Assembly (NCBI RefSeq): GCF_030028105.1
Contig: NC_092396.1
Coordinates: forward strand, 31,499,474-31,563,473
Length of the DNA: 64,000 nucleotides
Reading direction: 5' to 3'
Source of the DNA: Mobula birostris
Taxonomy: Eukaryota
Below are positions 3,321 through 52,764 of this stretch, one piece after another. Position 1 is the first letter of the stretch. The number at the start of each line of letters is the position of its first letter. The notes below the pieces were generated by a model that was not told where the DNA came from, made no database searches, and saw only the letters and a list, made by a program, of their open reading frames with translations. Made by a program: the position numbers and the translations under genes.

Positions 3321-4043
3321 GGAAACTAGTCTACTTTGTCAATTTGATTTTGTTCTTCATGAGCTGTCCCAATTAACCAATGGCCCAATTAACCGGAATC
3401 TACTGTACCTCCACTAGAGGGAATATCTTCTCAATAATCTCTGTGCTTCATTATCATCTCTCATTCATTTGAATTCTGGTAAGTCCAAACTGCTCGATCT
3501 TTCTTCATATTATCAGTCCTGTAACCCAGGATCAACCTGGATAAATTTGTCTGTGCTGCCACCAATACAAATGGATCTTTCCTTAATTATAGACATCAAT
3601 ACTTTCACAGTTCGTCACAGACAGAATTAATAGTGGTCTACACGTTTACGAGATTATTTTCCTACTTTTACATGCCACAAAAGCCAACATTCTCAATAAC
3701 CTGCTGTACCTGCATCCAGCCCTTTATACATCATGTACTGGAACCCCCAGATCCTTTGTACTGCAGCATTTTATGGTTTTACCTCATAATTTGCTTTTAT
3801 ATCTTTCCTCCCAAGATGAATAACTTCTCATTTTGTCACAATGTCCTGTCTATCAAGTGTCTTCCCACTCACATAACCCTTTGTCCCTTTGCTGACTCTT
3901 GAGCCCATCTCACAGTCCGCTAATTCAGCAGTACAATCCTTTGTCCAAGTCAGCCGTGTAAGTTGTAAATAGTTATGGACACAGCATTGAGCATTGTGGC
4001 ACCCCACTAATTTAATGATTGCCAATCCGAATATGAAGCATCA

Positions 4044-4235
4044 ACAACACACAGAAAATGCTGGAGGAATGCAGCAGGCCAGGCAGCACCAATGGAAAAA
4101 AGTATAGTCTACGTTTCCGGCTGAAACCCCATGTAGACAGTACTGTTTTCCATAGATGCTGCCTGGCCTGCTGAGTTCCTCCAGCATTTTGTGTGTGTTG
4201 CTCGGATTTCTAGCATCTGCAAGTTATCCTTTGTT
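4044..4235. mobile_element. Short fold-back PLE-pLTR insertion with 12-bp TSD
   Basis: Inverted pLTR tails; TATGAAGCATCA at 4032-4043 and 4236-4247. Confidence 0.88.
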
Positions 4236-4289
4236 TATGAAGCATCAGCATGTGCCATCCATGTGCATTATGGGCAACATAGTGCAGCC

Positions 4290-25800: not shown

Positions 25801-28800
25801 CTTTAAAATATTGGCTTCAGCTGTTTATTCTTCACTCACTTTGCTCTTCAACCTACAACCTTCTAATTCTACAATGAGATTTGAACAGTGTTGTGAGACA
25901 TGCACCTTTTACACATATGGTAATATGTTTGGTATCTACTCTGAATATTCCACTGAAGCCATTTTGGATCAATGTCCAGCAATATTGACTGGGCTGGCAG
26001 AGTTTCATCATCTGGAACTATCAAAGGAATTAAAATTAAATTCAATATGATGACATCTGTTGAGGAGCAGAGGGATCTTAAAGTCTAAGTTCGTAAGAGG
26101 CTACAGAGGTTGACAGGGTGATTTAAAGGCATATTCCATGCTTGCTTTTATTAGTGGTTGCCTGGAATATGCTGCCTGGGGTAGTGGTAGAGGCAGATAC
26201 ATTAGAGACTTTTAGATAGGCACAAGATTTTGAGAAAAAAAAGAAAATAGACATTGTGTGAGCAGAGGGGAATGACTTAGTTGGCCACTTGATTACCAAT
26301 TTATTTGGCTCAGAACAATATTGCGGGCCGAAGGGCCTGTGCTGTGCTGTACTGTTCCAGTTCTACTGGGTGTTTTATGTTTATCCACATGAGGCAATGA
26401 AGTCATGGTAATTAGGTTCTCGTTATTTCATCTGGTCCAAGCTGGAATTCTCACACCCTCTCCATTATTAACTCTGCCTCTTTCCTAATATATATCTTCC
26501 ACTAACTCTTAATTCTTAGCAAAGATCAACCGTTGTGAGTGTCTCTAGCAGGACACCATGAATAACTCTTTTACCTTTGACTCCTGGCAATGTTCCCTTT
26601 AGATTATTGCTTTTTAATTGCAAATTTTTGCATGCTACCTTGGACATTACAGCTTTCACTTCCTTTGCACAATCTTTTAACTTTTTAAGTTTCAGTTTAT
26701 TATCATAGGCATGTGTGTTCAGGGTCTAAATGGCATGAAAGTTGTCTTTTTATATAGCAGTAGCACATTACAATACACCTTGAAAGGAAGGTTTGGTGAA
26801 CTGTCTCCCTTCTGTCTGAGGATGAATAGTTCTTTCCCCTTACAGTTGGCTGATTTTGGAAAACATTTGGTGGTAACTATTAATACTAATTAATTTAGTT
26901 TTGATTTGGAACTGCACACTGTGATTCCTGACCTTTCATCTTAATGGAAGCATGTTATTGAAACAGTTTCTAACGATCTCTCTTTGTCCAGGCAACGGTG
27001 CAGCCGAAGTGTGGCCGTGTGGTGGGCTTCTCCTCGGGAGCAGAGAACCCTCATGGAGTCCAGGCCGTGACCAAAGGACAGAGGTGCGGAGTGGCACTCT
27101 GGTTCACGCTGGATCCCCGGCAGAAGGAACGGGTATGGCTCAGCGAATGAGAATACTGTCAAATTCCGGCAGGCTAACCTGCAGGAATGGAGCTGGTGGA
27201 GAGAGCGGGAGTGGGGGTGTGGTGTGGGAGAGCAATAATGGGGCGTGACAGTGCGGTACAATGTAGTGGAAGGGGTTTTGGTTCAGGGAAGATGATGTGG
27301 TGCATGGTATGTATTAGAGAATATGGTGTGTTGTAGAGAATATGGTGCGTGGTAGAGGATCTAGTTTGCAGTAGAGGGTCTGGTTTGCAGTAGAGTGTCT
27401 GGTTTGCAGTAGAGGGTCTGGTTTGCAGTAGAGGATCTGGTTCGCAGTAGAAGGTCTGGTTTGCAGTAGCAGGTCTGGTTTGCAGTAGGGGGTCTGGTTC
27501 GCAGTAGAAGGTCTGGTTCGCAGTAGAAGGTCTGGTGTGCAGTAAAGGGTCTGGTTTGTAGTAGAAGGTCTGGTTTGCAGTAGAGGGTCTGTTTTACAGT
27601 AGAGGGTCTGGTTTGCAGTAGAGGGTCTGGTTTGCAGTAGAGGAACTGGTTTGCAGTTGAGGATCTGGTTTGCAGTAGAAGGTCTGTTTTACAGTAGAGG
27701 GTCTGGTTTGCAGTAGAGGGTCTGGTTTGCAGTAGAGGATCTGGTTTGCAGTTGAGGATCTGGTTTGCAGTAGAAGGTCTGGTTTGCAGTAGAAGGTCTG
27801 GTTTTCAGTAGAAGGTCTGGTTTTCAGTAGAAGGTCTGGTTTACAGTAGAAGGTCTGGTTTGCAGTAGAGGGTCTGGTTTGCAGTAGAGGGTCTGGTTTA
27901 CAGTAGAAGGTCTGGTTTGCAGTAGAGGATCTGGTTTGCAGTAGAGGATCTGGTTTGCAGTTGAGGATCTGGTTTGCAGTAGAGGTTCTGGTTTGCAGTA
28001 GAGGTTCTGGTTTGCAGTAAGGGTTCTGGTTTGCAGTAGAAGGTCTTGTTTGCAGTAGAAGGTCTGGTTTGCAGTAGAGGGTCTGGATTGCAATAGAAGG
28101 TCTGGTTTGCAGTAGGGTGCAAAACAGTGCAATGTTGAAGGTTGTTCTGGAAAATATGATGATCACATCCAACCTCTGCTTCAATCCTCAGCACTGTTGT
28201 TTAAATAAAGTTACCATCTTAAACATCCTGATGTGCCTCGCACTAATGACTTTAAGTGGTAGCAATCTGATAGAGTATGAAGTAACCCTCCCAATTCCAG
28301 GCTCAAATATCTGTTCTTCTGCCCAACCCTTTCGTCAAGTCCTTGATATTTTTGCTTTCCAGTGGTCAGTGATGATGGGCTGCTATTTGGTCTTGGCGGG
28401 ACCAGATCTGTTGCTGGGACCTTCCATTATGGCTGATTTATTAACTATTTTTACCCCATTCTCCTGCCTTCTCCTCATAACTTTTGACACCCTGACTGAT
28501 CAAGAAACTAGCAACTTCCGCTCTAAATATACTTGATGATTTGGCCTCCACAGCTGCATGTGGCTATGAATCCCACAGATTCACTCCCTTCTAGCTAAAG
28601 AAATTCCTCTTCACCTCTGTTCTAAATGAACTTCTCTGTACTCTGAAGCTATTCCCTCCGGTCCTAGACTCCCCCACTATAGGAAACATCCACTCTATTC
28701 AGACTTTTCAGTATTCGATAGGTTTAAATGAGATCCCTTTCTCATTCGTATGAACTTCAGTAAGTACAGTTCCAGAGCATCAAATGTTCTCTTTTATTCC

Positions 28801-31296
28801 TGGAATCATTCTGCTGAATCTCCTCTGGACACTGAAAATTCCAACATATTTTTTCTTCGATAAGGGGCCCAAAACTGCTCACAATACTCCAAGTGCAATG
28901 CCTGATAAAACCTCAGCATCAAATCCTTGATTTTATATTCTCAAAATCGGTGCTAATATTGATTGCATTTGCCTTCCTTAACACCAACTCAACTTGCAAG
29001 TTATGCAAGTCCCTTTGCACCTCTGATTTTTGAATTTTCTCCCTGCTTAGAAAATAATCTATGACATTATTCCTTCTACCAAAGTGCATGACCATACATT
29101 GTGTACACTATATTCTATCTGCCACTTCTTTGCCCATTCTCCCAATCTATCTAAGACTTTATACAGACTTCCTGCTTCCTCAACATTACCAGCCCTTCAA
29201 CCTATCTTTGTATCATCCACAAGCTTGGCAACAAAGCCATCAATTCTGTCATCCAAATCATTGACATATAGTGTGAAAAGAAACGGTCCCAGCATGGACC
29301 CCGGCAGGACACCACTAACCACTGGCGGCCAACTAGAAAAGGCTCCCTTTATTCTCACTCTGCCTCCTGCCAGTCAGCCAATCTTCTTTCCATGCTAGTA
29401 TCTTTCATGTAATACTATGGGCTCTTATCTTGTTTAGCAGCCTCATGTGCAGCACCTGGCCAAAGGCCTTCTGAAAATCCAAATATACAACATTCACTAA
29501 CACTCCTTTGTCTGTCTTGTTGTTATCTCCTCAAAGAATTCCAATAGATTTGTCAGACAAAATTTCTCCTTAATGAGACCATGCTGATTTTAGCCTTTTT
29601 TTTATCATGTACCTCCAAGTATCCTGAAACTTCATCCTTAATAATGGCCTCCAACACCTTGCCAACCACTTAAGTCATGCTAACTGGCCTATAACTTATT
29701 TTCTTCTATCTCCCTTCCTTACCTTAAAGATTGGAGTGGCATTTGCAATGTTCTAGTCCTCCAGAAAGATTCCAGACTCTAGTGATTTATGAAGTATTAT
29801 TACTAATGCCTCCACAATCTCTTCAGCTGTCTCTTTCTGAGCCCTGGGCTGTAGACCATCTGGTCCAGGTGACCTACCTGCCTTCTATTTAACTTCAGAC
29901 CTTTCAGCTTACCAAGCACCTTCTTAGTATTAGCAACCACACTCACTTCTGCCCCCTGAAACCATTGAATTTCTAGCATGCTGCTAGCATCTTCCACAGT
30001 GGAGACTGATGCAAAATACTTATTGACTTCGTCTGCCATTTCATTGTCCCCCATTACTATCTCTCCAACCGTCTGATATCTACTCTTGCCTTTTACTTTG
30101 TTTAGCTGAAAAACTTTTGGTATCTTCTTTGATATTATTGGCTAGCACCTTCATATTTCATCCTTGCTCTCCTTATGGCTTTTTTTTTGTTGTTCTCCAA
30201 CAGCATCAGAACCTCTTGACCATGTCTGCATGCTTTTATGCATTGAGTTGCTTCACATGATTGGCTGATTAGATATTTGCATTAACAAGCGGGTGTCTAG
30301 GTGTATCTAATAAAGTGGCCACTGTGTGCAAGTGTTGTAAAAGAAATATTATATCCCCAGTGAGGTTTGTGGATTGGATTCTATAGTTCATGTCATGATT
30401 TGTTTCTGGTTTCCGGTCACTCCTTTTTAATGCTATTTTGTGCGAGTTTTGATCAGGACAGGCTAGCTCTGCGGTCTGAAGTTAACGGACAACACAGCGC
30501 TAGACTGAACTGAACTGAATATGGCTGGACCATTACAATGTTTTGTGGTTTGGTGTTTTATGCTCTGTGTTTTATCACTCAATTTTTTGTGCGATTTGTT
30601 CTTTTTTCGTGCATGGGGGTTTAATGTTTTTCTTTGAACAGGTTTTCTTCCTTTGTTTTGAGGCAGTCTGTGGGAAGACAAATCTCAGGGTTGTATACTA
30701 CATTTATAGTTTGATAATAAATGTACTTTGAATCTTCATAAGCTGCCCTGTCTATTGACTGAATGTGACCAAGAGAAAGCCAATAGTCAGAGAAAGGTTG
30801 AGATTAAGCTGTCAGCACGGGAAAGGCAGGAACAGACACTTGGGAAAAGCAGTAATGACGCTACTGTGATGTGGCAGACATGCTGAGACTCGTGCTTTTC
30901 GCACCTGCTGAGCGTTTGATGTGCTAATTGCTCTGTGGCTCTCCCTGCCCTCAGGAGAGGATCGAGGCCGACGAGTTGGTGAAGTTGCTGTTTGGGATGG
31001 AGGAGGAGCTGCAGCAGGACGAGGGCGAGGTCAAGGAACCTGAGCCCGATGACCACCAGCCAACTGGGGCCCCAGCCGCCGTGCCCACCAGCAGGCCGCA
31101 CGCTCAGGACGAAGTGAAGCCCGACGAGCTCGCTCCAGGGAAACAGCCCAAGGTGGAAGAGCCAAAGGCAGAAAGCAATGGAGACCCTGAGCCTACAGTA
31201 AAAACAATGGACTCCCGTCAGGAGCCAGCACCTGCTGCTTCAGATCAGAAAGCCACACCATCTCTGAATATGCCATCTACAAAGCAGGAACTGTAA
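4741..31296 (+). CDS. P3H1: Prolyl 3-hydroxylase 1 (leprecan), spliced gene, exons 2-15; 5'-partial (1932 coding nt = 643 aa + stop in window)
   Basis: 14 exons join in frame with GT-AG sites. The peptide matches P3H1 (ECRALCEGPY, DHYIQVLNCKQNCVTELA, HVDNCILN, ENPHGV, ALWFTLDP) and ends in an ER-retention-type KQEL. Confidence 0.97.
5700..5990 (-). mobile_element. PLE pLTR fragment
   Basis: Minus strand cagtccagatgaagggtctcgatctgaaatgcc...gatgctgcctaacctgct, plus a purine-rich + strand tract. Confidence 0.75.
6055..6468 (+). repeat. Interspersed repeat, possibly RTE-5'UTR-derived and non-autonomous; an inverted copy lies at ~14755-15215
   Basis: Shared blocks gaaggagaactctgatctcaa, agagctggagtccctaaggcag and catccatggttgacccc recur reverse-complemented at 14755-15070. 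Confidence 0.65.
6469..7345 (-). mobile_element. Rex1/Babar LINE 3' fragment
   Basis: Minus-strand peptides SILTCCITTQYGGC..QDCKSLQKIV and RT remnants; same family as 51200-52160. Confidence 0.8.
8270..8459 (+). CDS. P3H1: P3H1 exon 3 (190 nt)
   Basis: cttcag|GAA...ACAG|gtacct; EAFRKGVRLYTDEQF...ECRALCEGPYNFDGYNYMEYNADLYQAIT. Confidence 0.96.
10721..10852 (+). CDS. P3H1: P3H1 exon 4 (132 nt)
   Basis: cttcag|ATCAC...AACT|gtaagt; HYIQVLNCKQNCVTELATRPDREAPVEDFLPTHFDYLQFAYYN. Confidence 0.96.
12531..12670 (+). CDS. P3H1: P3H1 exon 5 (140 nt)
   Basis: tttcag|CTGAG...AGAGAG|gtagat; ENYSQAIECAKTYLLFYPNDEVMNQNLQYYQAVLGE. Confidence 0.96.
12795..12870 (+). repeat. Perfect 38-bp tandem duplication
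   Basis: GGTGTCAGCCCCAGGATGAAGTTGAGGAGATCATGAGT x2 (12795-12832, 12833-12870). Confidence 0.95.
13256..14059 (+). mobile_element. 5'-truncated Penelope-like element with an open GIY-YIG frame and pLTR
   Basis: ORF 13418-13744 reads FTCESVGVIYCIRCSWCGLLYIGETRRRLGDCFVEHL...GMNIEF; 11-bp TSD TTCCTCCTCCA at 13245-13255 and 14060-14070. Confidence 0.93.
13951..13987 (+). ncRNA. Minimal type-I hammerhead ribozyme motif in pLTR (GAAA mutated to AAAA)
   Basis: cagtc-CTGACGA-a-GGG-ttccgg-CCC-aAAA-c-GTC-gact; stem I agtc/gact. Confidence 0.7.
14364..14453 (+). CDS. P3H1: P3H1 exon 6 (90 nt)
   Basis: ccacag|TAT...CCG|gtgagt; YIQTYINNSLLEKELLYFANEVFGVTFIDP. Confidence 0.95.
16121..16173 (+). CDS. P3H1: P3H1 exon 7 (53 nt)
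   Basis: ttttag|GAC...CAAAA|gtaaga; DKWTPENVIPVKLKEKQK. Confidence 0.95.
16473..16496. repeat. (TAT)8 microsatellite
   Basis: Read directly; another TAT tract lies near 56055-56080. Confidence 0.9.
16915..17170 (-). mobile_element. CR1 3' fragment just upstream of the exon 8 acceptor
   Basis: Minus strand ETLVRLH/LEYCVQLG..., typical of the CR1 ORF2 C-terminus. Confidence 0.75.
17207..17328 (+). CDS. P3H1: P3H1 exon 8 (122 nt)
   Basis: taacag|GGCA...GAGG|gtgagc; AERETAARISEEIGNLMKEIENLVDEKTKESSELVKMVRE. Confidence 0.95.
17937..18064 (+). CDS. P3H1: P3H1 exon 9 (128 nt)
   Basis: ctctag|GGGGT...AAT|gtgagt; GPLLYDNVQVVMNARLLNGTQRVLLDGVITDKECEEMRFLSN. Confidence 0.95.
18790..19420 (+). mobile_element. 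CR1 3' fragment interrupted by a PLE pLTR piece (~19137-19223)
   Basis: ERVQRRFTKVI, DLIETY, NFFSQKVVNHWNLLP; tail ttatggtcttatggtctt. Confidence 0.85.
19790..19885 (+). CDS. P3H1: P3H1 exon 10 (96 nt)
   Basis: cgctag|GCT...AAG|gtgagt; AAASMGDGYYGKPSPHTPNERFQGVTVLKALK. Confidence 0.95.
21384..21534 (+). CDS. P3H1: P3H1 exon 11 (151 nt)
   Basis: tggcag|CTT...GAAG|gtaaca; LSQEGRIPLKTSKLFYDISEKVRRIIESYFRLENPLYFAYSHLVCRTAVE. Confidence 0.96.
22640..23220 (-). mobile_element. CR1 3' fragment
   Basis: Reverse complement of the CR1 C-terminal region (gcagcatcctggtaaatctcctctgcaccctctc); tail atagaacatagaac. Confidence 0.8.
23706..23785 (+). repeat. 19-bp minisatellite, ~4.3 copies, ~70 nt upstream of exon 12
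   Basis: GTTCAGAAACACnGGCCAG units. Confidence 0.9.
23856..23973 (+). CDS. P3H1: P3H1 exon 12 (118 nt), carries the Fe(II)-binding HxD motif
   Basis: tattag|GAACA...ACAG|gtaaaa; TQENREDLSHSVHVDNCILNSEALECRKEHPAYTERDY. Confidence 0.96.
25135..25210 (+). CDS. P3H1: P3H1 exon 13 (76 nt)
   Basis: ttctag|TGCA...ACA|gtaagt; AILYLNHDFEGGNFIFTEIDAKVIT. Confidence 0.96.
26992..27132 (+). CDS. P3H1: P3H1 exon 14 (141 nt), distal His and 2-oxoglutarate-binding Arg
   Basis: gtccag|GCA...CGG|gtatgg; ATVQPKCGRVVGFSSGAENPHGVQAVTKGQRCGVALWFTLDPRQKER. Confidence 0.96.
27305..28116 (+). repeat. 19-bp minisatellite, ~40 copies, P3H1 intron 14
   Basis: Unit TGGTTTGCAGTAGA(G/A)G(G/A)TC; explains the repetitive minus-strand ORFs at 27594-28194. 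Confidence 0.97.
28400..30200 (-). mobile_element. Degenerate CR1 LINE (RT to 3' end)
   Basis: Minus strand MGDNEMADEVNKYFASV, VYLDFQKAF, GVLPGSMLGP, LVDDTKIG. Confidence 0.88.
30955..31296 (+). CDS. P3H1: P3H1 exon 15 coding part (113 aa + TAA), ends KQEL
   Basis: cctcag|GAG; ERIEADELVKLLFGMEEE...PSTKQEL*; start aligns with mammalian DRVQADDLVKMLF. Confidence 0.94.
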   Translation, partial: ERIEADELVKLLFGMEEELQQDEGEVKEPEPDDHQPTGAPAAVPTSRPHAQDEVKPDELAPGKQPKVEEPKAESNGDPEPTVKTMDSRQEPAPAASDQKATPSLNMPSTKQEL

Positions 31297-32651: not shown

Positions 32652-32802
32652 NNNNNNNNNNNNNNNNNNNNNNNNNNNNNNNNNNNNNNNNNNNNNNNNN
32701 NNNNNNNNNNNNNNNNNNNNNNNNNNNNNNNNNNNNNNNNNNNNNNNNNNNNNNNNNNNNNNNNNNNNNNNNNNNNNNNNNNNNNNNNNNNNNNNNNNNN
32801 NN
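32652..32802. other. Assembly gap (151 N)
   Basis: N run flanked by pyrimidine-rich low-complexity sequence. Confidence 0.99.
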
Positions 32803-33300: not shown

Positions 33301-33360
33301 GACTAAGTCAGGTGGGGGAGCCGGCCCAAGTCGCCGACCACTCGACCACGGCCCCCGGCC

Positions 33361-33550
33361 GAGCACCGGGCACCCGCCCCCCAGCGAATCTCTCCGAGCG
33401 CCGGGCGCCCGCCCCCCACTGAATCTCTCCGAGCGCCGGGCACCCGCCCCCCACTAAATCTCTCCAAGCGCCGGGCGCCCACCCCCCACTGAATCTCTCC
33501 GAGCGCTGGGCGCCCGCCCCCCACTGAATCTCTTCGAGCGCCTGGTGCCC
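33361..33550 (+). repeat. GC-rich 35-bp minisatellite, ~5.4 copies
   Basis: GAGCGCCGGGCGCCCGCCCCCCACTGAATCTCTCC starting at 33361, 33396, 33431, 33466, 33501, 33536. Confidence 0.95.
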
Positions 33551-35694: not shown

Positions 35695-36550
35695 GAGATC
35701 TGGATAATCTGGAAAAATGAGCTAAAATGGCAGATGGAATTTCATGCAGTGTGAGTTGTTGCACTTTGGGAGGGCAAACCTGGGTAGGACTTACACAGTG
35801 AGTGGTAGGGCACTGAAGAGTGCGGTAGAACAGAGGGATCTGGGAATACAGGTCTCCATAATTCCTTGAAAGTGGCATCACAGATAGATAGGGTCGTAAA
35901 AAAAAATGCTTTTGGCACTTTGGCCTGCATAAATCAATGTATTGAGTACAGGAGTTGGGATGTTATGTTGAAATTGTATAAGACATTGTTGAAGCCCAGC
36001 TTAGAGCATTGTGTGCAGTTTTGGTCACCTACCTACAGGAAAGATATCAATAAGATTGAAAAGGCACAGGAAAACATTAAAAGGATGTTGTCAGGACTTG
36101 AGGACCTGAGTTATAGGGAAAGGTTGATTGAATACACTAGGATTTTATTCCCTAGAGCACAGAGGAATGAGAGGAGATTTGATAGAGGTATGCAAAATTA
36201 TGAAGGGTATAGATGGAGTAATTGCAAGCAAGTTTTTTCCACTAAGGTTGGGTGAGACTAGAACTGAAGGTCATGGGTTATGGATGAAAGGTGAATTGTT
36301 TAAGGGGAATATGAGGGGGAATTTCTTCACTCAAGAGGGCAGTGAGCGTTGGGAATGAGCTGCGAGCGGAAGTGGTGGATGTGGGTTCAGTTTCAACACT
36401 TAAGAGAAATTTGGATAGGTACATGGATGGGAGGGGTACGGAGGGCTAAGGTCCGGGCGCAGGTCAATGCGTCTAGGCAGATTAATAGTTTGGCATTGAT
36501 TAGATAGGACAAAGGGTCAGTTTCTGTGCCGTACTGTATGACTATGACTT
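35695..36550 (+). mobile_element. CR1 3' fragment
   Basis: WAKMADG.F, IEYRSWDVMLKLYKTL..PSLEHCVQFWSP, RGDLIEVCKIMKG; tail tatgactatgact. Confidence 0.9.
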
Positions 36551-38069
36551 CTGTGCTCTCAACGCACAGCCTCAAAATTCCCAATGAATGATCCTTCTTG
36601 AGTTTGAGTAGTCATGGGCAGGGTTCCTAAGAGTTAGTAGAGACTCTGCATTTCATTAAAGGAAGGTTTGAACACATCCTTGAACCTTGGACCTCTCATG
36701 CACTAAAACATGAACTCTTAATCTCCCAATCTACTTCTTTGTGACCCTTACACTTTACTTGTCTGCCTGCATTGCCATTCATCTGTAACTCTAACTCTAT
36801 ATTCTCCATTCCAATTTCCTTTTTACTACCTCAGTGTATGGAATGACCTGTCTGGATGGAATCTTCTCACTGTGTGTGCCTTGGTACAAATGAAAATAAT
36901 AAACTGAAGAAGATAGCCCCAGCAAACAATGCGACCAACAGTGACATCCTTCAGACAGTTCACAAAACTACTTCCTTTACCTCTTCTTTCAAATATGATT
37001 CTACTGTGATTGGAAGTTGTGATTTACATTTTGTCGGTGTGTCGATTGAGCGATCAGGCATTTTGTTGTCTCCGAGGGAACTCGGTGAGGTTTGGAATGG
37101 AGCCCGTGGCCTGAAGGCCAAAGAACCTGGAGACGGGGTGCGAGCCCATGATCGACTAAATTTCTTGCTGATCTCGCTGAGCAAGATTGAAATCAATGAG
37201 GACAAGAGCAGAAGGTGAGCCGGTGTTACCGTCTGCCTGTGTTCGATCAGTCTCTTGCTTCCCCTTGGCAGAGGATGGTGCTGGAGTCTTGGAACCCAGG
37301 CAGGGTTTAATTGACATGGTTATGGCTTGGACTCTGCAGTCCATTTACATGTGTTTCTGGTTTCTGATTACTCCTTTCTTATTGCTATTTTGTGCAATTT
37401 TGATCGGGACAGACTTGCTCTGCTGTCACGAAAAATGGAACGGAGCTAAATTGACCATACCTAGACTCTTTCAAAGAGTCTGTGTTTTGATGCTGTACGA
37501 TCTGTGCCTTTTTCGCTCATTTTTTGTCACTTGCATGGCTTCTTCTTTTTTCTATGTGTGTTTGAATTTTTTCTTTGAACGTTTTCCATGGTGTTTCTTT
37601 GTTTTGTGGCTGCCTGTGGGAAGAAGAACCTCAGGGTTGTATACTGCATAAATACTTCTATAATAAATGTACATTGAAATCTGAACTCCAATTCCATTTC
37701 CTATCTTCACCTGTGAATCTCTTCCTATCACAAATCTCAGAATAGAGGTTCTGTTTGGGACAAGGATACAAGTGGCATAGTCAGCCCAATGAAGCTGACG
37801 GAGGGTAACTATGAACCCCGTGCTAGAAAGGTTGGTCAGAGGGAGCCAATGATTTTGGTGCACCAAGCCTTCCTGCTGGTATGGTGAATTTTGCAGTGAC
37901 AGATATTTCCTGTTCCTCTATATGCTTAATGTAAGTGATCCAGGTCTTGGAAGCAAAAAGGATCACTGTTACTCATTAGGCCAGGACTGAGGGAATCATC
38001 TCTACAAAATCTTTTTCTCAATCAGCCAAAGGCTATCTTGGGGCATAGAAGGAAATGGCAAATTTCATA

Positions 38070-38190
38070 AACTCAAGAAATTCGTAGATGCTGGAAATCT
38101 GGAGCAACTTGGAGGAACTCAGCAAGTCAGGCAGCATCTATGGAGGGGAGTGAACTGTCGACATTTCAGGCCGAGACCCTTCATCAGATT
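38070..38190 (-). mobile_element. PLE pLTR tail beginning at a hammerhead core
   Basis: Minus strand CTGATGA-a-ggg-tctcgg-cct-GAAA-t-GTC-gacag...gatgctgcctgacttgctgagttcctcca. Confidence 0.8.
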
Positions 38191-39176
38191 TCATCACTGG
38201 TGGCTGCCTTGCCAAAAGCTGGCTCCTAACATATGGGAGGTGGTTCACATTTTCCAAACTCTCACCAGTGTGGCCCAGATTACCAGAGGGCTTTAGTCTG
38301 CAGATGTTCTGTGCAAAGCCCTTCCTCTCAACTGCCTCATTGAAAGTCTCAACCATGGCCTAGAGCACAAGCAAACACAGGCCTTGTCCATAGGCTGGAG
38401 TTCAGGTGATTTTGGTTCTGGAGTTTAGTCAAGATTGGTTGAATAGTTTCCCATTAGTTCTGAAAATTAGCACCACTTCCCCAGGAAGTTTGTTGGAGAT
38501 GAGTTATAATATTTTGGTGAGTAAGACAGAGAGATATGTTGCGGGCAAGAAACAGCCTTATTTGACTCTGGTCTTCACTGAGAATGGATCTGTTTACACC
38601 TACTTCCTTAGTATCATGATTAGCAAAGTGTTGAAAGCCCTGCACAAAACATTAGTTATGCTTATTATATGTTGTTCCGATCACCAGACCACAGGAAGGA
38701 TGTGCAAGCTTTAGAAAGGGTGAAAAGCAATTCAAATGTATGTGTTGTCGCTTTGGAGTGTATCAGCTATAAGGATAGGTTGGACTAACTTTTCTCTGGT
38801 GTATCAGAGGGGCAGACTGATAGACCATAAGACATAGGAGCAGAATTAGGCTATTCAGCCCACCGAGTTTGCTCCATCAATAGAAGTATACAGTATTGTA
38901 AGAGGGATATCATCAGAAGAAGGATCCTGTTGAAGTTTGTCTTCCTTACTCTTCTCTTGCCAATTACACCTTGGAAGAAGATTATGTCCATTCACATCAT
39001 GGTGCTGATATCATTCAGGAGGTTCCATTCTGTTAAGGCGTATCGATTATCATTTTCCTTTAAACTGGACATCGTGCCTCCCTCATTACAAATGATGGCA
39101 ATACTCACATTACCAAACTAGGAGAGCCGACATGCTGTTGGGACTGCCCGTAAGATTCCTGACATTGTTGGTCCAA

Positions 39177-39395
39177 GCAACACTCACGACACGCTGGAGG
39201 AACTCAGCAGGTCGGGCAGCATCCGTGGAAAAGATCGGTCGACGTTTCGGGCCAGAACCCTTCGTCAGGGCTCCGAAGGGTTCCGGCCCGAAGCGTCGAC
39301 CAATCTTTTCCACGGATGCTGCCTGACCTGCTGAGTTCCTCCAGCGTGTTGTGAGTGTTGCTTTGACCCCAGCATCTGCAGATTATTTTGTGTTT
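39177..39395. mobile_element. Young fold-back PLE-pLTR insertion: 90-bp inverted arms, 9-nt loop, 13-bp TSD
   Basis: Arms 39175-39264 and 39274-39363; ATTGTTGGTCCAA at 39164-39176 and 39396-39408; CpGs retained. Confidence 0.95.
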
Positions 39396-41154
39396 ATTGT
39401 TGGTCCAAAACTTCATGTTATGCAGCGGAGGAATGGAAAACAAGAAAAAAAAACTGCAGATGCTGAAAACCTGACATATAAACAGAAGATGCTAAAAACA
39501 GTCAGTGGGACAGGCAGCATCTGAGGTAAAGAGAAAAAGTTAACATTTCGGGTCTGGGACCTTTCATTTAGAACATTTGATGGTGAATGTCCCTTCAACA
39601 GTGTTATGTTTTGCAACTTCAAAACATTAACCTAATTCAAGTGAAGATGGGAGTCCGGGAATGCAGGTCTAGTTCATTCCCTACTTCAAGCGAAGTGCAC
39701 ATATAACACATGGTAGCATGATCACGTATGTAATTAATGTATTTTTACATATCACGTGTAATTAATTATTTAAATGAACAAGAATGCTCAATCAAGCAAT
39801 AAATATCCAAGATCTCTCAAATATTACTGAAATTTTAAATACACAAGTAGCTAGCAACAAATAGATGTAGAGAAGGTAAGAGGCCAGGGAGAGGGGTCCA
39901 GATGGGTTGGGAATCATTGAGGTGGGAGAAAAAGTCCACATTTTGGGCTGAAGATTCCTGGTCACAGTAGGCATGGAAGCAGAGGCAGTAGGAGAGGAGT
40001 TCTATTTCATGTCAAGTCAGAATTCATTAAGATGGGGATGTAGATGATAGAAGATAACATTTCTGTTGAGGACTGATTGTTCAACATCAGATAGAAGATG
40101 GTGAAAACACAGAAAACGGGTGGAACTGAGAGAGGCGGGGTCAGGAGAAACGGCAGAGGGAGAAAGGTTAGAAGGATTATTGGAATCCAAGATCTATTGA
40201 CATTTGTGATCTTAGATGTCAAAAAGGAAGAGGAAATATGTCTGTGGTAGCACCAAGTATGCGGAGATTAAAGTAGGACTGCAGATCATAATAGCTTGGA
40301 GACAGAGCGAGCCAGTGCTGTTGAAGACAGACATGAGGAGCATGCATGTGCTACAGAATGTGATAAGAACACAGCCTCAAGAAATGCTCGGTAGTTGATA
40401 ATTGGTAATAGGCTTATTTTTCTTCTAAGTACTGAGAAACAGAGAAAAACTTCGTTTTGCAAGCTATCCATACATATCATTTGGAAACACAAGTACATTG
40501 AGGTTGCACAACTGAAAGGTCGATAACAGAACGTAGCACATAATGTTACAGGTACATAGAAAATGCAGTACAGGTAGACCATAAAGTGCAAGGACCACAA
40601 CGAGGTAGATAGAGGAATCAAGAGTTCAGCTTTACCATACAAGAAATACGTTCAAGAGTCTTATAACTGCAGGGTAGAAGCTGTGTTTCAGCTTTGTGTT
40701 ACGCGTTTGAGATCTTGGGTTTTCCAAATGTGTGGGTGAACTGTCAGTAGAAAGGGACACGTGCTGAGTTAGAGTTAAGGACATTTGCTGAGGAGGGAGA
40801 TGTGTCTGTGGAAGTGAGTCTTGGTCTACACCTTGTTGTAGACCAGAAGTGAAAGGGAAAGCACTGAGGGTGAACAAGGCATAAGGGACAGACAGGAGTC
40901 TCCCCAGCGGTAGGGGTGCTTTGGATGGACCAACAAGGTGAATGTACAAAGGTGCCAAGTCCCCATTTGTAAAGGAAAATAGTCTCCAAGTGTCTTGGCC
41001 AATATACCCTCTTCAATCTATAGTACTGATTGGCTAATCGTGTTAACATTTGCTATTTCTGGGATTTATTGCCCACAGATTGATTGCTGTATTGGTCTAT
41101 ATTACAACAGCAAATGTGAGCCAGAGGTATCACGAGATAATACTTGAATAGGAG

Positions 41155-41616
41155 ACTCATGCAAAATTCTGGTGGAACTCAATAAGTCAGTCAGCATTTA
41201 TGGAGGGAAATAAACAGTCGGTGTTTCTTCAGGATTGGAAAGTGAGGGATTGGATGCCAGAATAAGAAGGTGGGAGGACAGGAAGGAGTATAAGCTGGCA
41301 GATTAGATAAAAGGGAAAGTGGGTGGGTGGGGAAGTGGGTGAAGTAGAAAGCTGGGAGGGGGTAGGTGGAAGAGATGAAGGGCTGAAGAAGAAGGAATCT
41401 AATAGGAGAGACAGTGGACAATAGAAGAAATAGAAGGAGGAGAGGAATGTTCTTGTTCTGGCCTATGACGACTCATTTCCAGTCCTAATGAATGGTCTCA
41501 GCCCAAACTGCTAATTGTTTATTCCCATCCATAGCTGCTGCCTGACTTGCTGAATTCCTCCAGCATTTTGTGTGTTTTGCTCAAGGTTTCCAGCATCTGC
41601 AGAATCTCTTGTGTTC
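41155..41616. mobile_element. Longer fold-back PLE-pLTR insertion
   Basis: Inverted pLTR followed by a sense pLTR tail; degenerate 16-bp TSD aatacttgaataggag (41139-41154) / aacatttgaatgggag (41617-41632). Confidence 0.8.
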
Positions 41617-42012
41617 AACATTTGAATGGGAGTTCTTTCAAGCTATTCTGTCAGATGCTTGAACTAAATTCTTGCCATGTCTACACAGTGAATCATAGGT
41701 GGTGTCTGTGAATCTGAGGCCACCTTCTGGACTGGAAGAGAAGCACCCAGAAATCATTGGCCTTGGGCAGGGAGGACTGTGTGTATCGTGCCGGCAACTC
41801 ACCAAAGGCTGTAAAGCCCTTGAATAATTCCACAGTGCACAGAACCAAAGGCAGAAGCTGCTGAGGTGATACCTAGTTGGACAGGGTACGGTGGGGAAGA
41901 GGATGAGGGATGGCTGTCAATGGCCGCTGTTAATTTGTTGGGGTTGTGATGGGGACCTGGGTTACAAGTACATTTTGTAGTGGAGGGAAGGGACAGGATG
42001 GGGATTGGGAGT

Positions 42013-42231
42013 CACACATACAAAATGCTGCGGAAACTCAAAATGTCGGGCAGCATCATTGGAAAGAAGTAAACAGTTGCTATTCCGGTTTGAGACAACA
42101 CATCAGGTCTCAGCTCACAACCTTGACTGCTTATTCTTTACCATCGATGCTGTTTGACCTGCTGAATTCCTCCAGCGTTTTGTGTCCGTTACTCTGGAAT
42201 TCCAGCATCTGAAGAATCTTTTGTGTTTAGT
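42013..42231. mobile_element. Older fold-back PLE-pLTR insertion
   Basis: Inverted tails; TTGGGAGT at 42005-42012 and 42232-42239. Confidence 0.8.
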
Positions 42232-43028
42232 TTGGGAGTTAAGTTGGGGAGGAAGGAACGACCTACAGGTCAGACTGAACTGGACATACTTTCATCATAG
42301 AGTGCCCAACAGTAGCGGGTTCCCTGTGCAGAACACCACAGCCCGGAGCCTGGTCCGGTTGGTCCACTATAGCTATTGACGAAGCAGGTCTCTCATTGTT
42401 GCTTAATGCTCTGCCATCTACAAGCACAGGGATGTGAATACAGTTTGCAGAAGTGGTATCCGGATGTTGTCAGGTGTGTGGGAATAACATGGCAATTACT
42501 GGAGCAGCACTGGTCCAGAAATGGAAGCAGAGATCCACCATGACAGCAGGGAAAGCTAAATTCAAGGCAATGAAAAAGATATGGAATTCACTGGTACTGG
42601 TATTGGTTTCTAACAAGTAATTGCATTGTTATACAAACTCATCCTGTTCACTAATATTATTCAAGGAAGGAAACTGTCACACTTCCTCGTCCTTCACCAT
42701 ACAACGTGTCTTCAGCCATCTCTCTCAGCCTTACTGCATTTATTTATCGACTCTTTCCTTGATCTCTGCCTGTTCCCATGGTGCTTTACACAACATCTGG
42801 TTATGTTTCCTTTGCTTGGTATGAATGTTGCACTTTTGAAGCAGGCAAGAATCTCCGACTGGCGCAGTGAGAGACTGAAGATGTCCTTGAACACTTCCAC
42901 CAGTTGGTAGGAACAGGATCTCAGTGCCCTACCAGAGTCATCATCAGAGCCTAATGCCTTGCAAGACTTCACTGTCTTGAAAGATGTTCTGATGTTCGCC
43001 TCCAATACAGAGATCAGAGGGTCACCAG

Positions 43029-46000
43029 TATAGTGTATTCAATATTTCAGTAATATTTAAGTAATATTGTAAACCTACTGTTTGATCAAACATTCTTTGT
43101 TTGTTTACATAATTCCTTATGGGTTATATGTAAGAAGTATGTGAATGGCATGCGTCATTACGCCGCCAAGTCATATGTGAACACTTCACCAAAAAAATGG
43201 AAAACTAAGCAGGCAAGTCTCCCGGCTCCTGTATTTTTCTTTCAATTAGTTTGCAGAGTTACGAAACAGAACAGCGGCAACAAGGAAGCTTTGAAATGCA
43301 CCCAAGATGACTACCAACCTGTTGAAGAGGAGTATGTTTTCTTTGGAAGGGGAGAGAAATGTTCGAAATTAAAAAAGCCAGAAAAAGGACCAAATTAACA
43401 AGCAATGAGTACAACCAAGGATTCATAAACAGTGAGTACTGGGTGATAAGAACAAAAAATCTTAAAAAGCAGAAATGGCAGGCTACATTGGAAAGATAGA
43501 CATGTTCAATTTCACAACCAATACCTGGATGATGTATACTGAACAAATTGAAAAGTACTTTGAAACAAATGAAATAGCCAATGGAAAACAAGTGCCAGTG
43601 TTGCTGAGTGGAATAGATGAAAAAGCATACGGTATGCTTTGACGCTTGTCTGCTCCAACCAAACCAGCCGAAATGAGCTTTTCTGCTATCATGATCATAA
43701 TGCAGGAACATTTAGAACTGATACCATTGTTGATTGCAGAACACTTGGGGTTCATAAGTGGAATCCAAAGGAAAGGGAGTAAATTTCAGCGTATGTGGCT
43801 GAATTGAAGAAATTGTCCAAGCATTATGAGTTCAGTGATTGGCTTAATGAGGCACTGAGAGATTGTTTAGTTTGTGGAATCTTACAAGAAAACATTCAAA
43901 AACTGCTCCTAACTAATGCACAACTCACATATAAAGGAGCAGTTGAAATTGCCATATCAATGGAAACAGCAGCCAGAGACACAATTGAACTGCAGTCAGG
44001 AATAAAAGTGAATGTGAACAAAATTGCAACATCTAAACAGAAACCTACCAGGCAGAACAAATTGTGTTACCATTGTTGCAGGGGCTCACATACACTAGAT
44101 CAATGCAGGTTTAAAGGCGAAACTTGCAGAAAATGCCGCAAAGTAGGTCACATACAAAGTGTACGTCATGCAGGCAAAAATAAACAGCACAAGAAAGAGA
44201 AAAGGATAAAAATCCAAGTTGCAGTTTGAAAAAGAGCATGCTGTTGATGAAAAATATGATAATGATGAGAGTGATGCAGAACTTGCTACCCTTGAGATTT
44301 ACAATGTGAAAGCTATCAAGAGACAAGCAATACGGCTTACACCAGAAGTGAATAGCAAGTTAATTAAAATGGAATTGGAGACTGGCTCAGCTGTTCCAGT
44401 CATTCCACAAAATGAGTTTGAAAGACATTTCAAAGATGCTGAACTGAAGCCTGCAGATATCCAACTAAGAACTTAAGCTGGAAAAAGAATAATTCCTGTG
44501 GGAAAGACATTTGTAACAAAGAAATACAACAACCAACAAGCCACATTGGGCTTGTATGTGGAAAAAAACAGTAAGGCCAGCATTGAGGGGTGTGGTTGGT
44601 TGAGGCAATCACAACTTGATTCGCATGCAGTACCTCCTACAAGAGAACCAACTGAACGTGAATTAAGATGTTGGCACAGCAGTGTTCAAAGATGGCATTG
44701 AAAAACTCAAACATATCAAGGGTAAAATAGTGTTAAATGAAAATGCCATAGCCACATTTTACAAAGCCTGTCCGGTTCCTTATACTACTTGTGATGAAGT
44801 AAAAAGTAAGCTAGCTCGGAATTCTTTCCGAGGTTGAGTGGAGCCCATGGGCAATAGCTGTTGTCTCAGTAACCAAGATGGATGAGTCTGTCAGGATCTG
44901 TGGTGATTTTAAGGTCATTATCAACCCAGCACTGAAAGTAGATCAATACCCTCTGCCCAGAATAGAGGATATATTTGCAAATTTTTCTGAGAGAAACGCT
45001 ACAGCAAAATAGACATACTTAAGGCCTATCTACATTGAGGTGAAAGAAGAATGCAAAATGTTTCTCACCATAAACACTATCAAGAGCTTTACAGCTATAA
45101 TAGGCTTATTTTTGGAGTAGTGCTCTAGCAGACAGCTATGCACCAGGTGCTGTAAGACAGCCTAGGGACTCAGTGTTACCTGGATGACATCATTGTTACC
45201 AGAGTGCATGACAAGTAACATTGCCAATATCTCAAGACAGTGTTAAAAAGATAAGAAGATTATGGGCTCAGAACATGACACTACAGATGTTAATTCTTTA
45301 AACCAAGGATCACCTACTGTGGTCACACCATTGACGCTCAAGAATTTTCACAAGAGTGCTGAGAAAATTCAAGCAGTAGTGGATGCCCGAAGGCCAAAGG
45401 ATGTGTAACAGTTGCAGTCCTTTTAGGATTTGTTGATTACTATCACAAGTTCCTGCCAAACCTGGCTACTGCACTCCAGCCCTTGAACTAATTACAAATC
45501 AGTAAGAAGTGGCAATAGACAAAGCAGTGTGAGGTGGTTTTCAAAAAGACTAAAGAAATAGTGACATCATGCATTATGATTCATATCATCCATTGAAACT
45601 TGTCTGTGATGCCTTGCCATACAGTATATGTGCAGTCATGTCACATGTTATGAGTGATAGGAGTGAATACTTCATAGCCTTTGCATCTAGTTTTCTTACA
45701 GCTGTAGAAAAGAATTATGCACAGATTGACAGAGGGGACTTTAGTGTAGTTTGAGGTGTAAAACATTTCAATCAGTATCTGTACTGGAGAGAGTTTACTG
45801 TCATTACTGATCATCAACCACTGGTGTCCATTTGCAATCCACAGAATGATGTTCCACTAACAGCAACAGCACAAATGCAGAGATGGACTATTTTTCTTGG
45901 AGGACACAATTATAAGGTCAAATTCAAGAGGACAACTAATCATGGAAATGCTGATGTATTGTCCCATTTACCCTTGCGAAAGGAAATACCTGAAAAATTT

Positions 46001-48265
46001 ACAAAAGTGAACACTCCTCTGGAAATATTCCCCCAATTCACGTTGAAAGTCTCCTTATTACTCAGACACGATCCAAACGGAAACTAGAAATGACCCCATG
46101 CTGTATCAGGTCTACATGGCAACCCAAAATGGCTGGAATGTGTAGCAGAAATTCCAGTACTTCCTTTTTCACCAGTCCTGGAATGAACTTGCCCTTGACA
46201 GGGGTTGCCTTATGTGGGGATTGAGAGTTGCTGTACCATCCAAGCTGAGATCTAAAGTGTTTGAGGAGCTACATGCTGGTCATATAGACATGGTCAAAAT
46301 GAAAGCATTGGCTCAGAGCTTGGTCTAGTAGCTTGGGATAGGTCAGCAGACCCAGCAGCTTGCCATGCACTGTTCAGGATGGCAACACATCCTGGAGATG
46401 CCAAGAGTAGCACCTCTCCACCGGGGAATGGCCTGCATCCCCACTTGGGAATCCCTAGCAGAAGTTTCATGTCAATTTTGTCAGACCATTCATGAGCACA
46501 AAATTCCTGGTAGTAGAGTCTCCAGCTACAAAGTGGCCAGAAGTGTTAACAACAGTCTTCTCTACATCCCTGCACACTGTTGATGAGTTGAGAAGCGTCT
46601 TCTCAAGGACTACTGTTCCAGAGCACTTAGTCCATGACAATGGACCACAGTTGTTGTGGAACAGTTTCAGTCATTCCCAAAAATGAATGGAATGAGACAT
46701 ATTACAGCTGCACGGTACCACCCAGCTATAAATAACTTGGCAGAAAGGTTTGTCCAGAGTTTGAAGAATGCACTGCAAGCAATGACAGCAGAACATACTA
46801 CATTAACACTGGATCAGAAGCTCGCCAATCTCCACCTTAAATATTGCAATGCAGCACACTCCACAACCAACAACTCACCAACTATGCTGTTCCTGGATCG
46901 TCCCTTGCATTCACGCTTGGATCTCCTCAAGCCCAGTCTCAGAAGGAGTATGCAGGACAAATGGCTGAGACAAATTGAAGGCTCCTCAAACAAGGAGGTT
47001 CGATATTTCACTTCTGGACATGCAGTCCTGGCAAGAGACTGCCTAGGTAGCTAAGAGTCGATATTTGGAAAGATTAAGGACAGAACTGGACCACTCTCCT
47101 ACACGGTGGAGATTGTGTCTGATACCATCTGGAGATGACACAGCGATCAGCTGAGGAGAGCAGAGTCAATTGCTAGAGAAGAAAGGTGTCCAGAGCTGTC
47201 AGAACCACTTCCTGCCATCTTAGAGTTGACTCCTACTACCACCACAGAGGTGGCCAATGAACCTGAGATTGTTTCACAGCCACAAGTCTCACCTGCCAAG
47301 CAGAGGAAAGGCATCAGGAAAGGCGTTATCCCAGAAAAAGAAAGGAGGACAAAGCTGTCAGTAATATGAAGAGAAGGCAATACGTTACATATCTGAGTTG
47401 AGATGCATTGTATTTTTTTACTAATTTTTTATTGCAACACCAACAAATTACATTCAATACAACCAATTGCCAGTTACATTTTGACTGTTTAACCCAGCCA
47501 CCCCCCCAACCTTCATCACCATCCCCCCTCCACCCCTCTCTCCCCCCATCCCTCTCCCCTCCATCAACCAACTGAATAGTAGTGCATACACAGGCAAAGC
47601 ATTCCTATTTTAACAAAAGATCTTTTAAGTTAGATATCAAATTTGTCCACATTAAGATTGTATTTGGTCGTGCATCATTTACTCTAGCTGATGAAACTTC
47701 CAGGTAAGAAATGTCCAAAAAGCTCTGAAGCCAGTGAGTATTTGAAATATCATGGAGAGGTTTCCAACACTGGACTACAATCGTCTTAGCTGAAGTCAGG
47801 CCTGCCAGCCAGACTTTGCATGTTTTTTTCCGTAAGGTAAAGGTGGGAGTCATCATTTTGAAGATGTACAGTGGGGTCCATTGGTAATTGTACCCCCGTT
47901 AGTTCTGTAAGAGTACTGATAACCTTCCCCCACAAACCAAAAACCCCTGGACATTCCCATACAATATTTATAAAGATGCATTCTATATTGAGTTGGAGGT
48001 TATAGCTAAGCAGGAAGTTTGTTGTGTATTTAATATTTCAGTAATATTTAATATTGTAAAGATATTGTTTGATTAAGCATACTTTGTTTGTTTATATATT
48101 TCATTATGGGTTATATGTAAGAAGTAGGTAAATGGCATACGGCATTATACCACCACATCTCATGTGAGCACCACACCAAAAAAAAAAAGAAAAGAAAACT
48201 AAGCTGGCAAGTCTCCTGGCTCCTGCGTTTTGCTATCAATTAGTTTCTGGAGTTAAGACATAACA
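43029..48265 (+). mobile_element. Full-length degenerate Gypsy (Mag-like) LTR retrotransposon
   Basis: LTRs 43029-43273 and 48020-48265; PBS-like cggcaacaagga; gag ATG 43475 with two CCHC-like knuckles; protease MELETGSA; RT YLDD at 45177; RNase H CDA; integrase DNGPQ/AERFVQ; many stops and frameshifts; TSD accag/agcag. Confidence 0.93.
47414..47973 (-). mobile_element. L1/Tx1-type 3' fragment inserted in the Gypsy 3' region
   Basis: T-rich tail at 47414-47430; minus-strand IVWECPGV..LWGKV and LAGLTSAKTIVVQCWK; TSD agatgcattgtat (47401-47413) / agatgcattctat (47974-47986). Confidence 0.8.
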
Positions 48266-51199: not shown

Positions 51200-52160
51200 A
51201 ACATTTTGCAGAAGCAGAATCAGATTTAATGTCACTGGCATATGCTGTGAGGTTTGTTGTTTTGCGGCAGCAGTACATTGCAATACAGAATAATAAAAAC
51301 TGCAAATTACAGTAAGAAGTATATATATTTAAAAAGTTAAATTAAATAAGTACTGCAAAAAGAGAAAACAAAAGTTTTCAACGTCCATTCAGAAAGCGGA
51401 TGGCAGAGGGGAAGAAACTGTTCCCGAATCGCTGACTGTGTGCCTTCGGGTTCCTGTATCTCCTCCCTGATAGTAGCAATGAGAAGAGGGTACGTCCTGG
51501 ATGATGGGGGTCCTTAATGATAGACATCACCTTTTTGAGGCACTGCTCCTTGATAGTGTCCTGGCTGCTGGGGTGGCAAGTGCACATGAGGGAGGTGACA
51601 GAGTTTACAACTTCCTACAGATGATTTTGATCCAGTGCAGTGCCTCCCCTCCCATACCAGACAATCATGCAGCCAGTTAGAATGCTCTCCATGGAATATT
51701 TGCAGAAATTTGTGAGTGTCTCTGGTGACATACTGAATCTCCTCAAACTCCTCATGAGATCTAGCCACTGTCATGCCTTCCTCGTAACTGCATCGATATG
51801 TTGGGCCCAGGATAGATCCTCAGAGGTAGTGATACCCAGGAACTTGCAATTGCTCACCCTTTCCACGTCTGATCCCTCGGTGAGGGCTGGTAGGTGTTTC
51901 CTCGCCTTACCCTTTCTGAAGTCCACAAACCATTCATTGGTCTTACTGATGCTGAGTGCAAGGTTGTTGCTGTGACACCACTCAACCAGCTGATCTGTCT
52001 TGCTCCTGTACGCCCTCTCATCACCATCTGAAATTCTGACAATGAAAGTTCTGCCATCAGTAAATTTATAAATGACACTTGGGCTGTGCCTAGCCACACA
52101 TTCATGGGTGTAGTGAGAGTAGAGCTGTGGGCTAAGCACGCATCCTTGAGGTGTGCCAGT
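51200..52160 (-). mobile_element. Rex1/Babar LINE RT C-terminus and 3' UTR
   Basis: LSPQLYSHYTHEC, LVEWCHSNNLALSISKT, KFLGIT, IIKDPHHPG..LFSLL.SGRRYR, SFFPSAIRFLN. Confidence 0.9.
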
Positions 52161-52764
52161 GTTGATAATAAGTATATAGGATCTGTAAGGTCTTCACAAA
52201 GATTTGGAATAGTAAGGTGCTCAATGAATGTAAATAATCTTATTCTCAGAAAAATTAAATTGGGCCAATTGTCTTCACTGGGCACCTAAATTCAAACTCT
52301 TCCTGTTAATTTGAAGAATAAATCTTGAAACAACTTGCATCCATACTTTGATAATAAATATACTTTGAATCTTTTGACCTGCCCATACCATGATCTTCTG
52401 TAACGCAAGCCTGCATCATTTGCACATGCATGAAGCAGCACCACTTGGAACTTTGTGTTTATTTACCTTATTTCACATAACTTCCACGAGAGTGAAACTT
52501 ACGCTGCACTACAAATTGTTGGCACCAGAATCTGTGTTGGCATGTATGGGATGTCCCCAGTGCAACATCCATGGGTATGCTGGTTGTTTATGTAAAATGA
52601 TACATTTCACTGTATGGGATAAACAACTCTGAATCTCGGGTAGTGATTTGTAAATTCTGTAAAGGCAAATTTCTATTACCTAATCAGCTGTAACACAAGA
52701 TTCTTCTACACTTATGTTTAAATTTTGATTCACAAGGGGAGATGGGCTGATCTTTTATTAGTTG

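Follow-up and report, generated by a model that had tools for sequence, protein, structure and literature searches.

A body-less hairpin in the Mobula birostris genome as a probable Penelope-like element insertion

A short hairpin-bearing insert in the DNA of Mobula birostris is very probably one insertion of a Penelope-like element (PLE). It lies in the 64,000-nucleotide stretch of contig NC_092396.1 that was analysed here (hereafter, the window). The structure as a whole is probably explained by two truncated PLE 3' ends that were co-inserted head to head, with both nicked target strands priming cDNA; two-ended priming, taken by itself as the route of insertion, is a reading we favor a little more guardedly. 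The architecture is known for PLEs while the locus is new, and the insert represents an established type of PLE insertion in minimal form.

The palindrome is centered at position 39269. Its left arm (39177-39264, minus strand) is an inverted, tail-less PLE 3' end, i.e., a piece of the pLTR, and its right arm (39274-39361, plus strand) is a PLE 3' end that begins in the middle of a hammerhead core, at C7. The arms are 88 bp each and fail to pair at five positions, all of them transitions; pairing extends to 95 nt (94%) when the adjoining bases of the left duplication are counted, which adds a sixth mismatch. The 9-nt loop, TCAGGGCTC (39265-39273, minus strand), is not shared evenly between the arms: 39265-39272 extend the left arm and correspond to the 5' strand of hammerhead stem I plus CUGA, with one change relative to the family copy at 13952, and 39273 belongs to neither arm. 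A 13-bp direct repeat, ATTGTTGGTCCAA, is present in exact copies at 39164-39176 and 39396-39408, and we infer that it is a target-site duplication. The left arm directly abuts its copy of the repeat. The right arm alone carries an extension, a 34-nt PLE tail (39362-39395, plus strand), and homologous tails are found on other family copies in the window. An earlier, sequence-only reading of the locus was correct about the 9-nt loop, the five mismatches, and the perfection of the 13-bp repeat; its 90-bp arms measure 88 bp, its 190-bp hairpin measures 185 bp (219 bp separate the two duplications), and the repeat does not flank the right arm immediately, because the tail lies between. That reading named neither the element class nor the tail, and the two combined account for the structure as a known PLE product.

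RNA transcribed from the plus strand of the hairpin is predicted to fold with an energy of -201.6 kcal/mol (z -26.4), and minus-strand RNA with -190.4 kcal/mol (z -24.0); on neither strand did any of 200 shuffled sequences fold equally well. Exact 13-mer repeats with the spacing seen at the hairpin occur at 458 of 63,500 window positions, all of which fall either in a tandem array (27371-27893) or at the hairpin locus itself, and the composition-based chance estimate for such an exact repeat is 3.5e-5. The fold scores, the shuffles, and the rarity of a 13-mer repeat at this spacing thus imply that the hairpin and its duplication did not arise by chance. The array, in its full extent (27174-28187), consists of short degenerate units, and its minus-strand frames stay open. 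The predicted folds also back the earlier expectation that the insert, given transcription, would fold back into long dsRNA. No RNA run was listed as containing the sequence, which is uninformative about expression. A cruciform, which had likewise been envisaged, is not supported for relaxed DNA: the duplex is favored over two DNA hairpins by ~60 kcal/mol, and extrusion would therefore need strong negative supercoiling. Formation of a single-strand DNA hairpin during replication, with a modeled energy of -110 kcal/mol, is plausible.

The reality and the age of the insert were evaluated with contigs from four sequencing runs, aligned to 1.3 kb around the locus (58,344-78,824 contigs in the four runs, depth being concentrated on the arms and on other repeats). 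Contigs of run X1, possibly the assembly's own source, cover 38839-39201 and 39373-39628 with no differences. Contigs of run X7, which comes from another study and bears another species label, cover 38833-39199 with 8 differences in 367 letters and 39373-39629 with 4 in 257, so that the X7 species diverges at 12 of 624 aligned letters, or about 2%. The junction contigs of both runs enter the element by 23-25 nt, which is less than the 31-letter bridging rule demands, and an empty allele would differ within these letters. Because both junctions are filled in the X7 species, the insertion cannot postdate the species split, and the hairpin is no assembly artefact. An empty site with a single 13-mer was absent from the joints listed for the four runs. 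In X14 and X15 the flanks are incompletely covered and no joint is listed at the site, so these two runs carry no weight for or against an empty allele. The proposed check for empty alleles confirmed both junctions in the X7 species and yielded no empty allele among the joints listed.

The five differences between the arms support the same conclusion. Four of them are at CG/TG or CG/CA positions (4 of 40 CpG sites versus 1 of 136 other sites, Fisher p 0.01), a bias that fits methyl-CpG decay of once-identical arms and is unlike what an artefact would leave. The direction of these changes is only inferred, since older copies read TG at two of the four CpG differences. A chimeric fold-back produced during assembly or amplification is hence extremely improbable: while the window does contain an N gap (32652-32802 region) and no contig among those listed for the four runs crosses the loop, the mostly CpG transitions, the duplication with its one-sided tail, and the occurrence of the two junctions in the X7 data, which come from a separate study and another species, all speak against it. 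A GC-rich short tandem repeat (33340-33550) lies near the gap. At sites other than CpG, one change between the arms is observed versus 1.3 expected for an insertion dating from the split of the two species. The insert is thus young among its neighbors and not younger than the split, and "recent", the word used for it earlier, holds relative to neighboring copies only.

The assignment to PLEs is based on a family of related ends. A profile built from eight window copies matches 26 family ends in the 64-kb window, those eight being counted among the 26. The copy closest to the arms (13952-14052) is 85% identical to them over 93-99 nt, and is the tail-less end of a PLE 3' fragment (13160-14052, plus strand) that also comprises a GIY-YIG-like frame (13160-13744) and a pyrimidine-rich stretch. 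The best homologues of this frame are ray proteins with 84-85% identity, which match GIY-YIG, mostly below the cut-off. Since the arms are homologous to an end located downstream of the GIY-YIG frame, they are PLE 3' ends. Two cysteines are found inside the GIY-YIG core, and according to PMC8557442 such a pair characterizes canonical PLE endonucleases, while a CX2-5CxxC linker marks Neptune and Nematis. The linker is present upstream of GIY-YIG in proteins P0001 and P0005 and in the window frame 2040-2792, which are relatives of the parent element; judged from this motif, the clade is likely Neptune, although the motif is also common to Nematis. P0001 and P0005 further contain an upstream YVDN/YIDD region, recognized by eye and without a Pfam reverse transcriptase match. 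In the hairpin insert itself, an inverted 5'-truncated copy adjoins the 5' end, and a hammerhead, read by eye, is present in the terminal repeat. A pattern scan for sibling or parent copies found none in metagenome contigs, viral contigs, or prokaryote genomes, as expected for vertebrate DNA. Five ray gene models named as host genes (P0001, P0002, P0008, P0017, and P0018) contain PLE endonuclease sequence; these are either annotation artefacts or exonized PLE pieces.

Other family ends surround the insert. An older tailed end (39448-39568, minus strand), also found in runs X7 and X14, lies 40 bp to the right, tail to tail with the insert. A solo tailed copy (38067-38191, minus strand) is flanked by a 7-bp repeat, ATGAAAT, and its 5' end coincides exactly with hammerhead position C3. 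The flanks of tailed ends tend to start with AT (39396, 4236-4237, 38069 on the minus strand, and 55429), which reflects either a target preference or a template-encoded sequence.

The hammerhead in the left arm was identified by eye against the minimal type described in PMC4209133. Its minimal type I core occupies 39241-39268 on the minus strand (C3 at 39268, G12 at 39248, C17 at 39241) and reads CUGACGA from 39268 and GAAACGUC at 39248-39241. Stem II consists of three Watson-Crick pairs, the loop of stem III is absent, and stem I is broken, with pairing at two of its first four positions; the core contains an extra base after position 9 and a palindromic ACGU. The earlier description of an intact minus-strand core with an imperfect stem I is therefore borne out, and so is the statement that the right arm starts mid-core: the plus-strand arm has core position 7 (39274) as its first base, is missing CUGA, and reads GAAGC instead of GAAAC owing to a G at 39293. 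This position reads A in paralogous contigs; A-to-I editing as the origin of the change was dropped, as a single transition is uninformative.

As in the minimal type I hammerheads of metazoan PLEs described in PMC4209133, the core is conserved, an extra base stands between positions 9 and 10.1, a G10.1-C11.1 pair is present, palindromic ACGU replaces stem III, and an opposite-strand partner lies nearby. Unlike those motifs, stem II has only 3 bp, stem I is interrupted at the junction, and an 88-bp stem encloses the core, which on the minus strand could be freed at a computed cost of 31 kcal/mol. The same source reports no cleavage by a single minimal motif and little by dimers. Given the two of four stem I pairs, the cost of freeing the core, and the lack of CUGA together with GAAGC in the plus-strand arm, the ribozyme is predicted to be inactive, and neither strand of the hairpin should cleave. 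A search of Rfam gave no match at gathering score in the whole window, and no hammerhead model was among the 12 matches at E<=10 in 36000-43000. The best match there, mir-1791, reached 39.7 bits versus a cut-off of 75; a microRNA identity was rejected, as the sub-threshold microRNA matches mirror the stem only.

A splice-acceptor-like pyrimidine tract ending in CAG stands just 5' of hammerhead stem I at 13935-13955, and similarly at copies 1525, 5696, and 55293. The end of the Drosophila Penelope intron maps to the same spot, just before hammerhead stem I (PMC4209133). A spliced leader could be the source of the extra bases in the loop.

The hairpin is not the only structure of its kind in the window. 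Among 11 candidate head-to-head pairs, two have exact duplications, two have decayed ones, and seven are unconvincing. The second exact case (4032-4247) is a body-less fold-back of the same PLE family with a 12-bp duplication, a 34-nt tail, a junction inside the hammerhead, and arms alike at 54 of 60 positions. An older body-less fold-back (42002-42239) has arms alike at 50 of 70 positions and a duplication, picked by eye, that matches at 9 of 11. The fourth pair (41144-41632) retains an inverted body of ~250 bp, with a 10/11 duplication and arms alike at 45 of 55 positions; a doubtful alignment gap in this pair makes its tail length uncertain and its target-template overlap either 0 or 3 (counted as 0). 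The tail of the hairpin is 34 nt long, and two of the other pairs have tails of 34 and 38 nt. The less exact the duplication, the less alike the arms are across the four (13/13 and 94%, 12/12 and 90%, 10/11 and 82%, 9/11 and 71%). In all four duplication-bounded pairs, one arm is tailed and the other tail-less, and it is the tail-less arm that extends further 5'; the join is within the hammerhead in all three body-less pairs. An old head-to-head pair with a spacer of ~60 nt (20595-20774) has no duplication that we could find.

These pairs bear on how many events produced the insert. Family ends are dense enough around the hairpin (four start within 38067-39568) for two copies to have landed back to back independently, or for one copy to have been rearranged later. 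Yet the pair as a whole is enclosed by a single exact 13-bp repeat, with none between the arms, the arms are 94% alike compared to 85% for the best other copy in the window, and 4032-4247 repeats the layout with a duplication of its own. This alternative is thus very unlikely, and the earlier reading of one integration event, which one exact duplication around both arms and the matching layout of 4032-4247 uphold, is the likely one.

A single event could also have copied the hairpin whole from a donor hairpin, i.e., from a non-autonomous fold-back family with a MITE-like shape mobilized by PLE enzymes. PLE terminal repeats can mobilize intervening sequence in trans (PMC3846280), and body-less hairpins are common, with three carrying duplications in 64 kb. 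Against this, the three window hairpins have three different centers, left-arm-to-right-arm contigs with other break points are present in all four sequencing runs, and, among the pieces listed, paralogues either end at 39269-39272 or begin at 39274-39307, with none crossing the loop. Copying from a donor hairpin is accordingly quite improbable. MITEs resemble the insert in being short, hairpin-forming, and flanked by target-site duplications; a MITE or foldback DNA transposon was rejected on the grounds that the inverted repeats do not extend to both termini (the 34-nt tail is one-sided) and duplication lengths vary (13, 12, and about 11 bp). Centers also differ between copies in the window and among the contigs listed.

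The co-insertion of two PLE ends has precedents. PLE insertions frequently carry, at the 5' end, a 5'-truncated copy in inverted orientation, along with a tail of 30-40 bp on one side (PMC8557442). Rotifer cases include inverted pLTRs, a 31-bp tail, 8-10-bp target-site duplications, and junction palindromes (PMC3846280), and a 2014 study drew attention to minimal hammerheads that lie 100-700 bp from each other on opposite strands (PMC4209133). The hairpin shares with the complex insertions of endonuclease-bearing (EN+) PLEs in PMC3846280 and PMC8557442 the head-to-head inverted terminal copies, the 30-40-nt tail at one end only, the junction palindrome, the hammerhead in the terminal repeat, and a flanking repeat that we take as a target-site duplication (8-10 bp in rotifers, 13 bp here). 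It differs in having neither ORF nor body, in that both copies are cut inside the hammerhead, and in that the insert is only the 185-bp hairpin plus tail; the cases in these two sources mostly flank an ORF or kilobase bodies. Non-LTR retrozymes are hammerhead-bearing PLE derivatives (bioRxiv 10.64898/2026.07.22.740005). A non-LTR retrozyme was rejected, as the copies here are head-to-head rather than in head-to-tail tandem and one core is incomplete. In a search that left aside most subscription journals, we found no paper on body-less PLE hairpins in rays, and none that ties both-strand extension to PLE inversions.

The following scheme would account for the structure. The GIY-YIG domain would make staggered nicks 13 bp apart, from which the duplication would arise. 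The bottom-strand end would prime at an outer start site and yield the tailed right arm (122 nt), while the top-strand end would prime at an inner site 34 nt upstream, perhaps aided by a 6/7-base match between target and tail, and yield the tail-less left arm (96 nt with the loop). Both cDNAs would halt inside the hammerhead, where their ends would be joined. The arms would have been identical or nearly so at the start and would have drifted later, mostly at CpG sites. The product was likely dead on arrival, since it has no element ORF and the stem is predicted to trap its ribozyme core.

In L1 twin priming, both target strands prime cDNA, which results in an inversion inside one target-site duplication, often with short homologies. 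The inverted part of L1 is upstream, non-overlapping sequence of one RNA, unlike in the hairpin, where both cDNAs copy the same 88 nt and two RNAs or two pLTR copies are therefore needed. The term "twin priming" was absent from those papers listed that mention pLTR.

Biochemical work on a PLE protein is consistent with priming from both ends. The purified protein nicks and extends both strands, prefers 5'-ATT-3', and is predicted to be a dimer, and it initiates reverse transcription at two positions, one on each side of the tail (PMC11167929). The element used, Poseidon PAc of the green anole, resembles the hairpin in having two end positions a tail-length apart and a duplication that starts with ATT, as the hairpin duplication does; its both-strand activity would yield a head-to-head product. 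Unlike Poseidon, the hairpin's family has the Neptune/Nematis linker motif CX3-4CxxC. The main text of PMC11167929 does not tie both-strand extension to inverted insertions and reports no target-template homology; the initiation site there is without homology to the cut DNA, which counts against a required priming match.

At the hairpin, the end of the left duplication (39170-39176, plus strand) is complementary at six of seven positions to the start of the tail (39362-39368) and is a possible priming match; the chance of this is 0.0016 at a fixed position, the position having been chosen after the fact. Exact target-template overlaps in the four duplication-bounded pairs are 2, 1, 0, and 4 nt, and their sum of 7 has a probability of 0.004 under a geometric null, a figure to be taken as a lead only, since boundaries were set post hoc and two of the four duplications are decayed. 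A test for upstream homology at all 26 family ends yielded little information, given the divergence and the high pyrimidine content of the reference stretches.

An alternative keeps the PLE identity and attributes the inversion to self-priming on an antisense template or to a folded-back intermediate; the tail would then be a remnant of resolution by the endonuclease. Head-to-head palindromes are read as self-priming on an antisense template in PMC3846280, and the tail is ascribed to resolution of the intermediate in PMC8557442. The arms appear to have been identical at the outset, and a small CTTC/GAAG inverted repeat of the family (in the copy at 13952) surrounds the same nine positions as the loop. 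However, the loop extends the tail-less arm whereas the tail belongs to the opposite arm, so that snap-back of either single cDNA, including a simple snap-back of sense-templated cDNA, cannot build the structure. The loop is also 2 nt longer than a CTTC/GAAG snap-back would leave, and the later in vitro work (PMC11167929) links the tail to two start sites with both strands extended. We therefore consider this route unlikely. Two-ended priming has difficulties of its own. A clean join at the family GAAG overlap would likewise be shorter by 2 nt than the join observed, and the extra bases, 39270 and 39273, are unexplained by two-ended priming, as the sequence of the parent subfamily was not retrieved; a further point against it is that seven of 11 candidate pairs in the window lack a convincing duplication.

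A P3H1-like gene ends upstream of the hairpin, its presumed stop codon lying ~7.9 kb away. An exon at 12533-12670 (plus strand) is P3H1 (leprecan)-like and matches residues 316-358 of human P3H1 (E 1e-19). We take 17157-17552 and 30928-31296 (plus strand) to be further P3H1-like exons, the last of which ends in KQEL. The frame 30928-31293 had no match in PDB and is presumed to be the last P3H1 exon based on the upstream exon match and the KQEL ending. Among the 168 stop-to-stop frames of at least 62 aa past 31300, 148 were compared with Pfam; this returned only retroelement domains and one sub-threshold match, and thus no host exon near the hairpin, although short exons would be missed. Broken remains of an LTR retrotransposon, with RNase H-like and integrase-like matches, are present at 43783-47054 (plus strand), and fragments of LINE-type endonuclease and reverse transcriptase at 50-1156 (plus strand) and 51771-52193 (minus strand).

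As a locus, the hairpin is of little importance, being one dead PLE fragment among many in the genome. Taken as a specimen, the structure is unusually clean and speaks to the way in which PLEs make inverted structures, a question listed as open in PMC8557442. A genome-wide count of tail and loop polarity can tell the inversion models apart; together with short target-template matches (n=4), this polarity could serve as a test of the PLE inversion route. Inside a transcribed intron, a hairpin of this kind would give long dsRNA, and there is a risk of taking such hairpins for MITEs, microRNA precursors, or assembly errors. We tentatively suggest, as a possibility that is still doubtful, that a PLE dimer priming from both ends yields body-less hairpins as its minimal product, with start sites split between the strands, the tail-less end set by short target-RNA pairing, and the cDNAs stopped and joined in the hammerhead. 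If true, the many such loci in rays would be a natural data set for deciding between this mode of PLE inverted-repeat formation and the antisense self-priming model.
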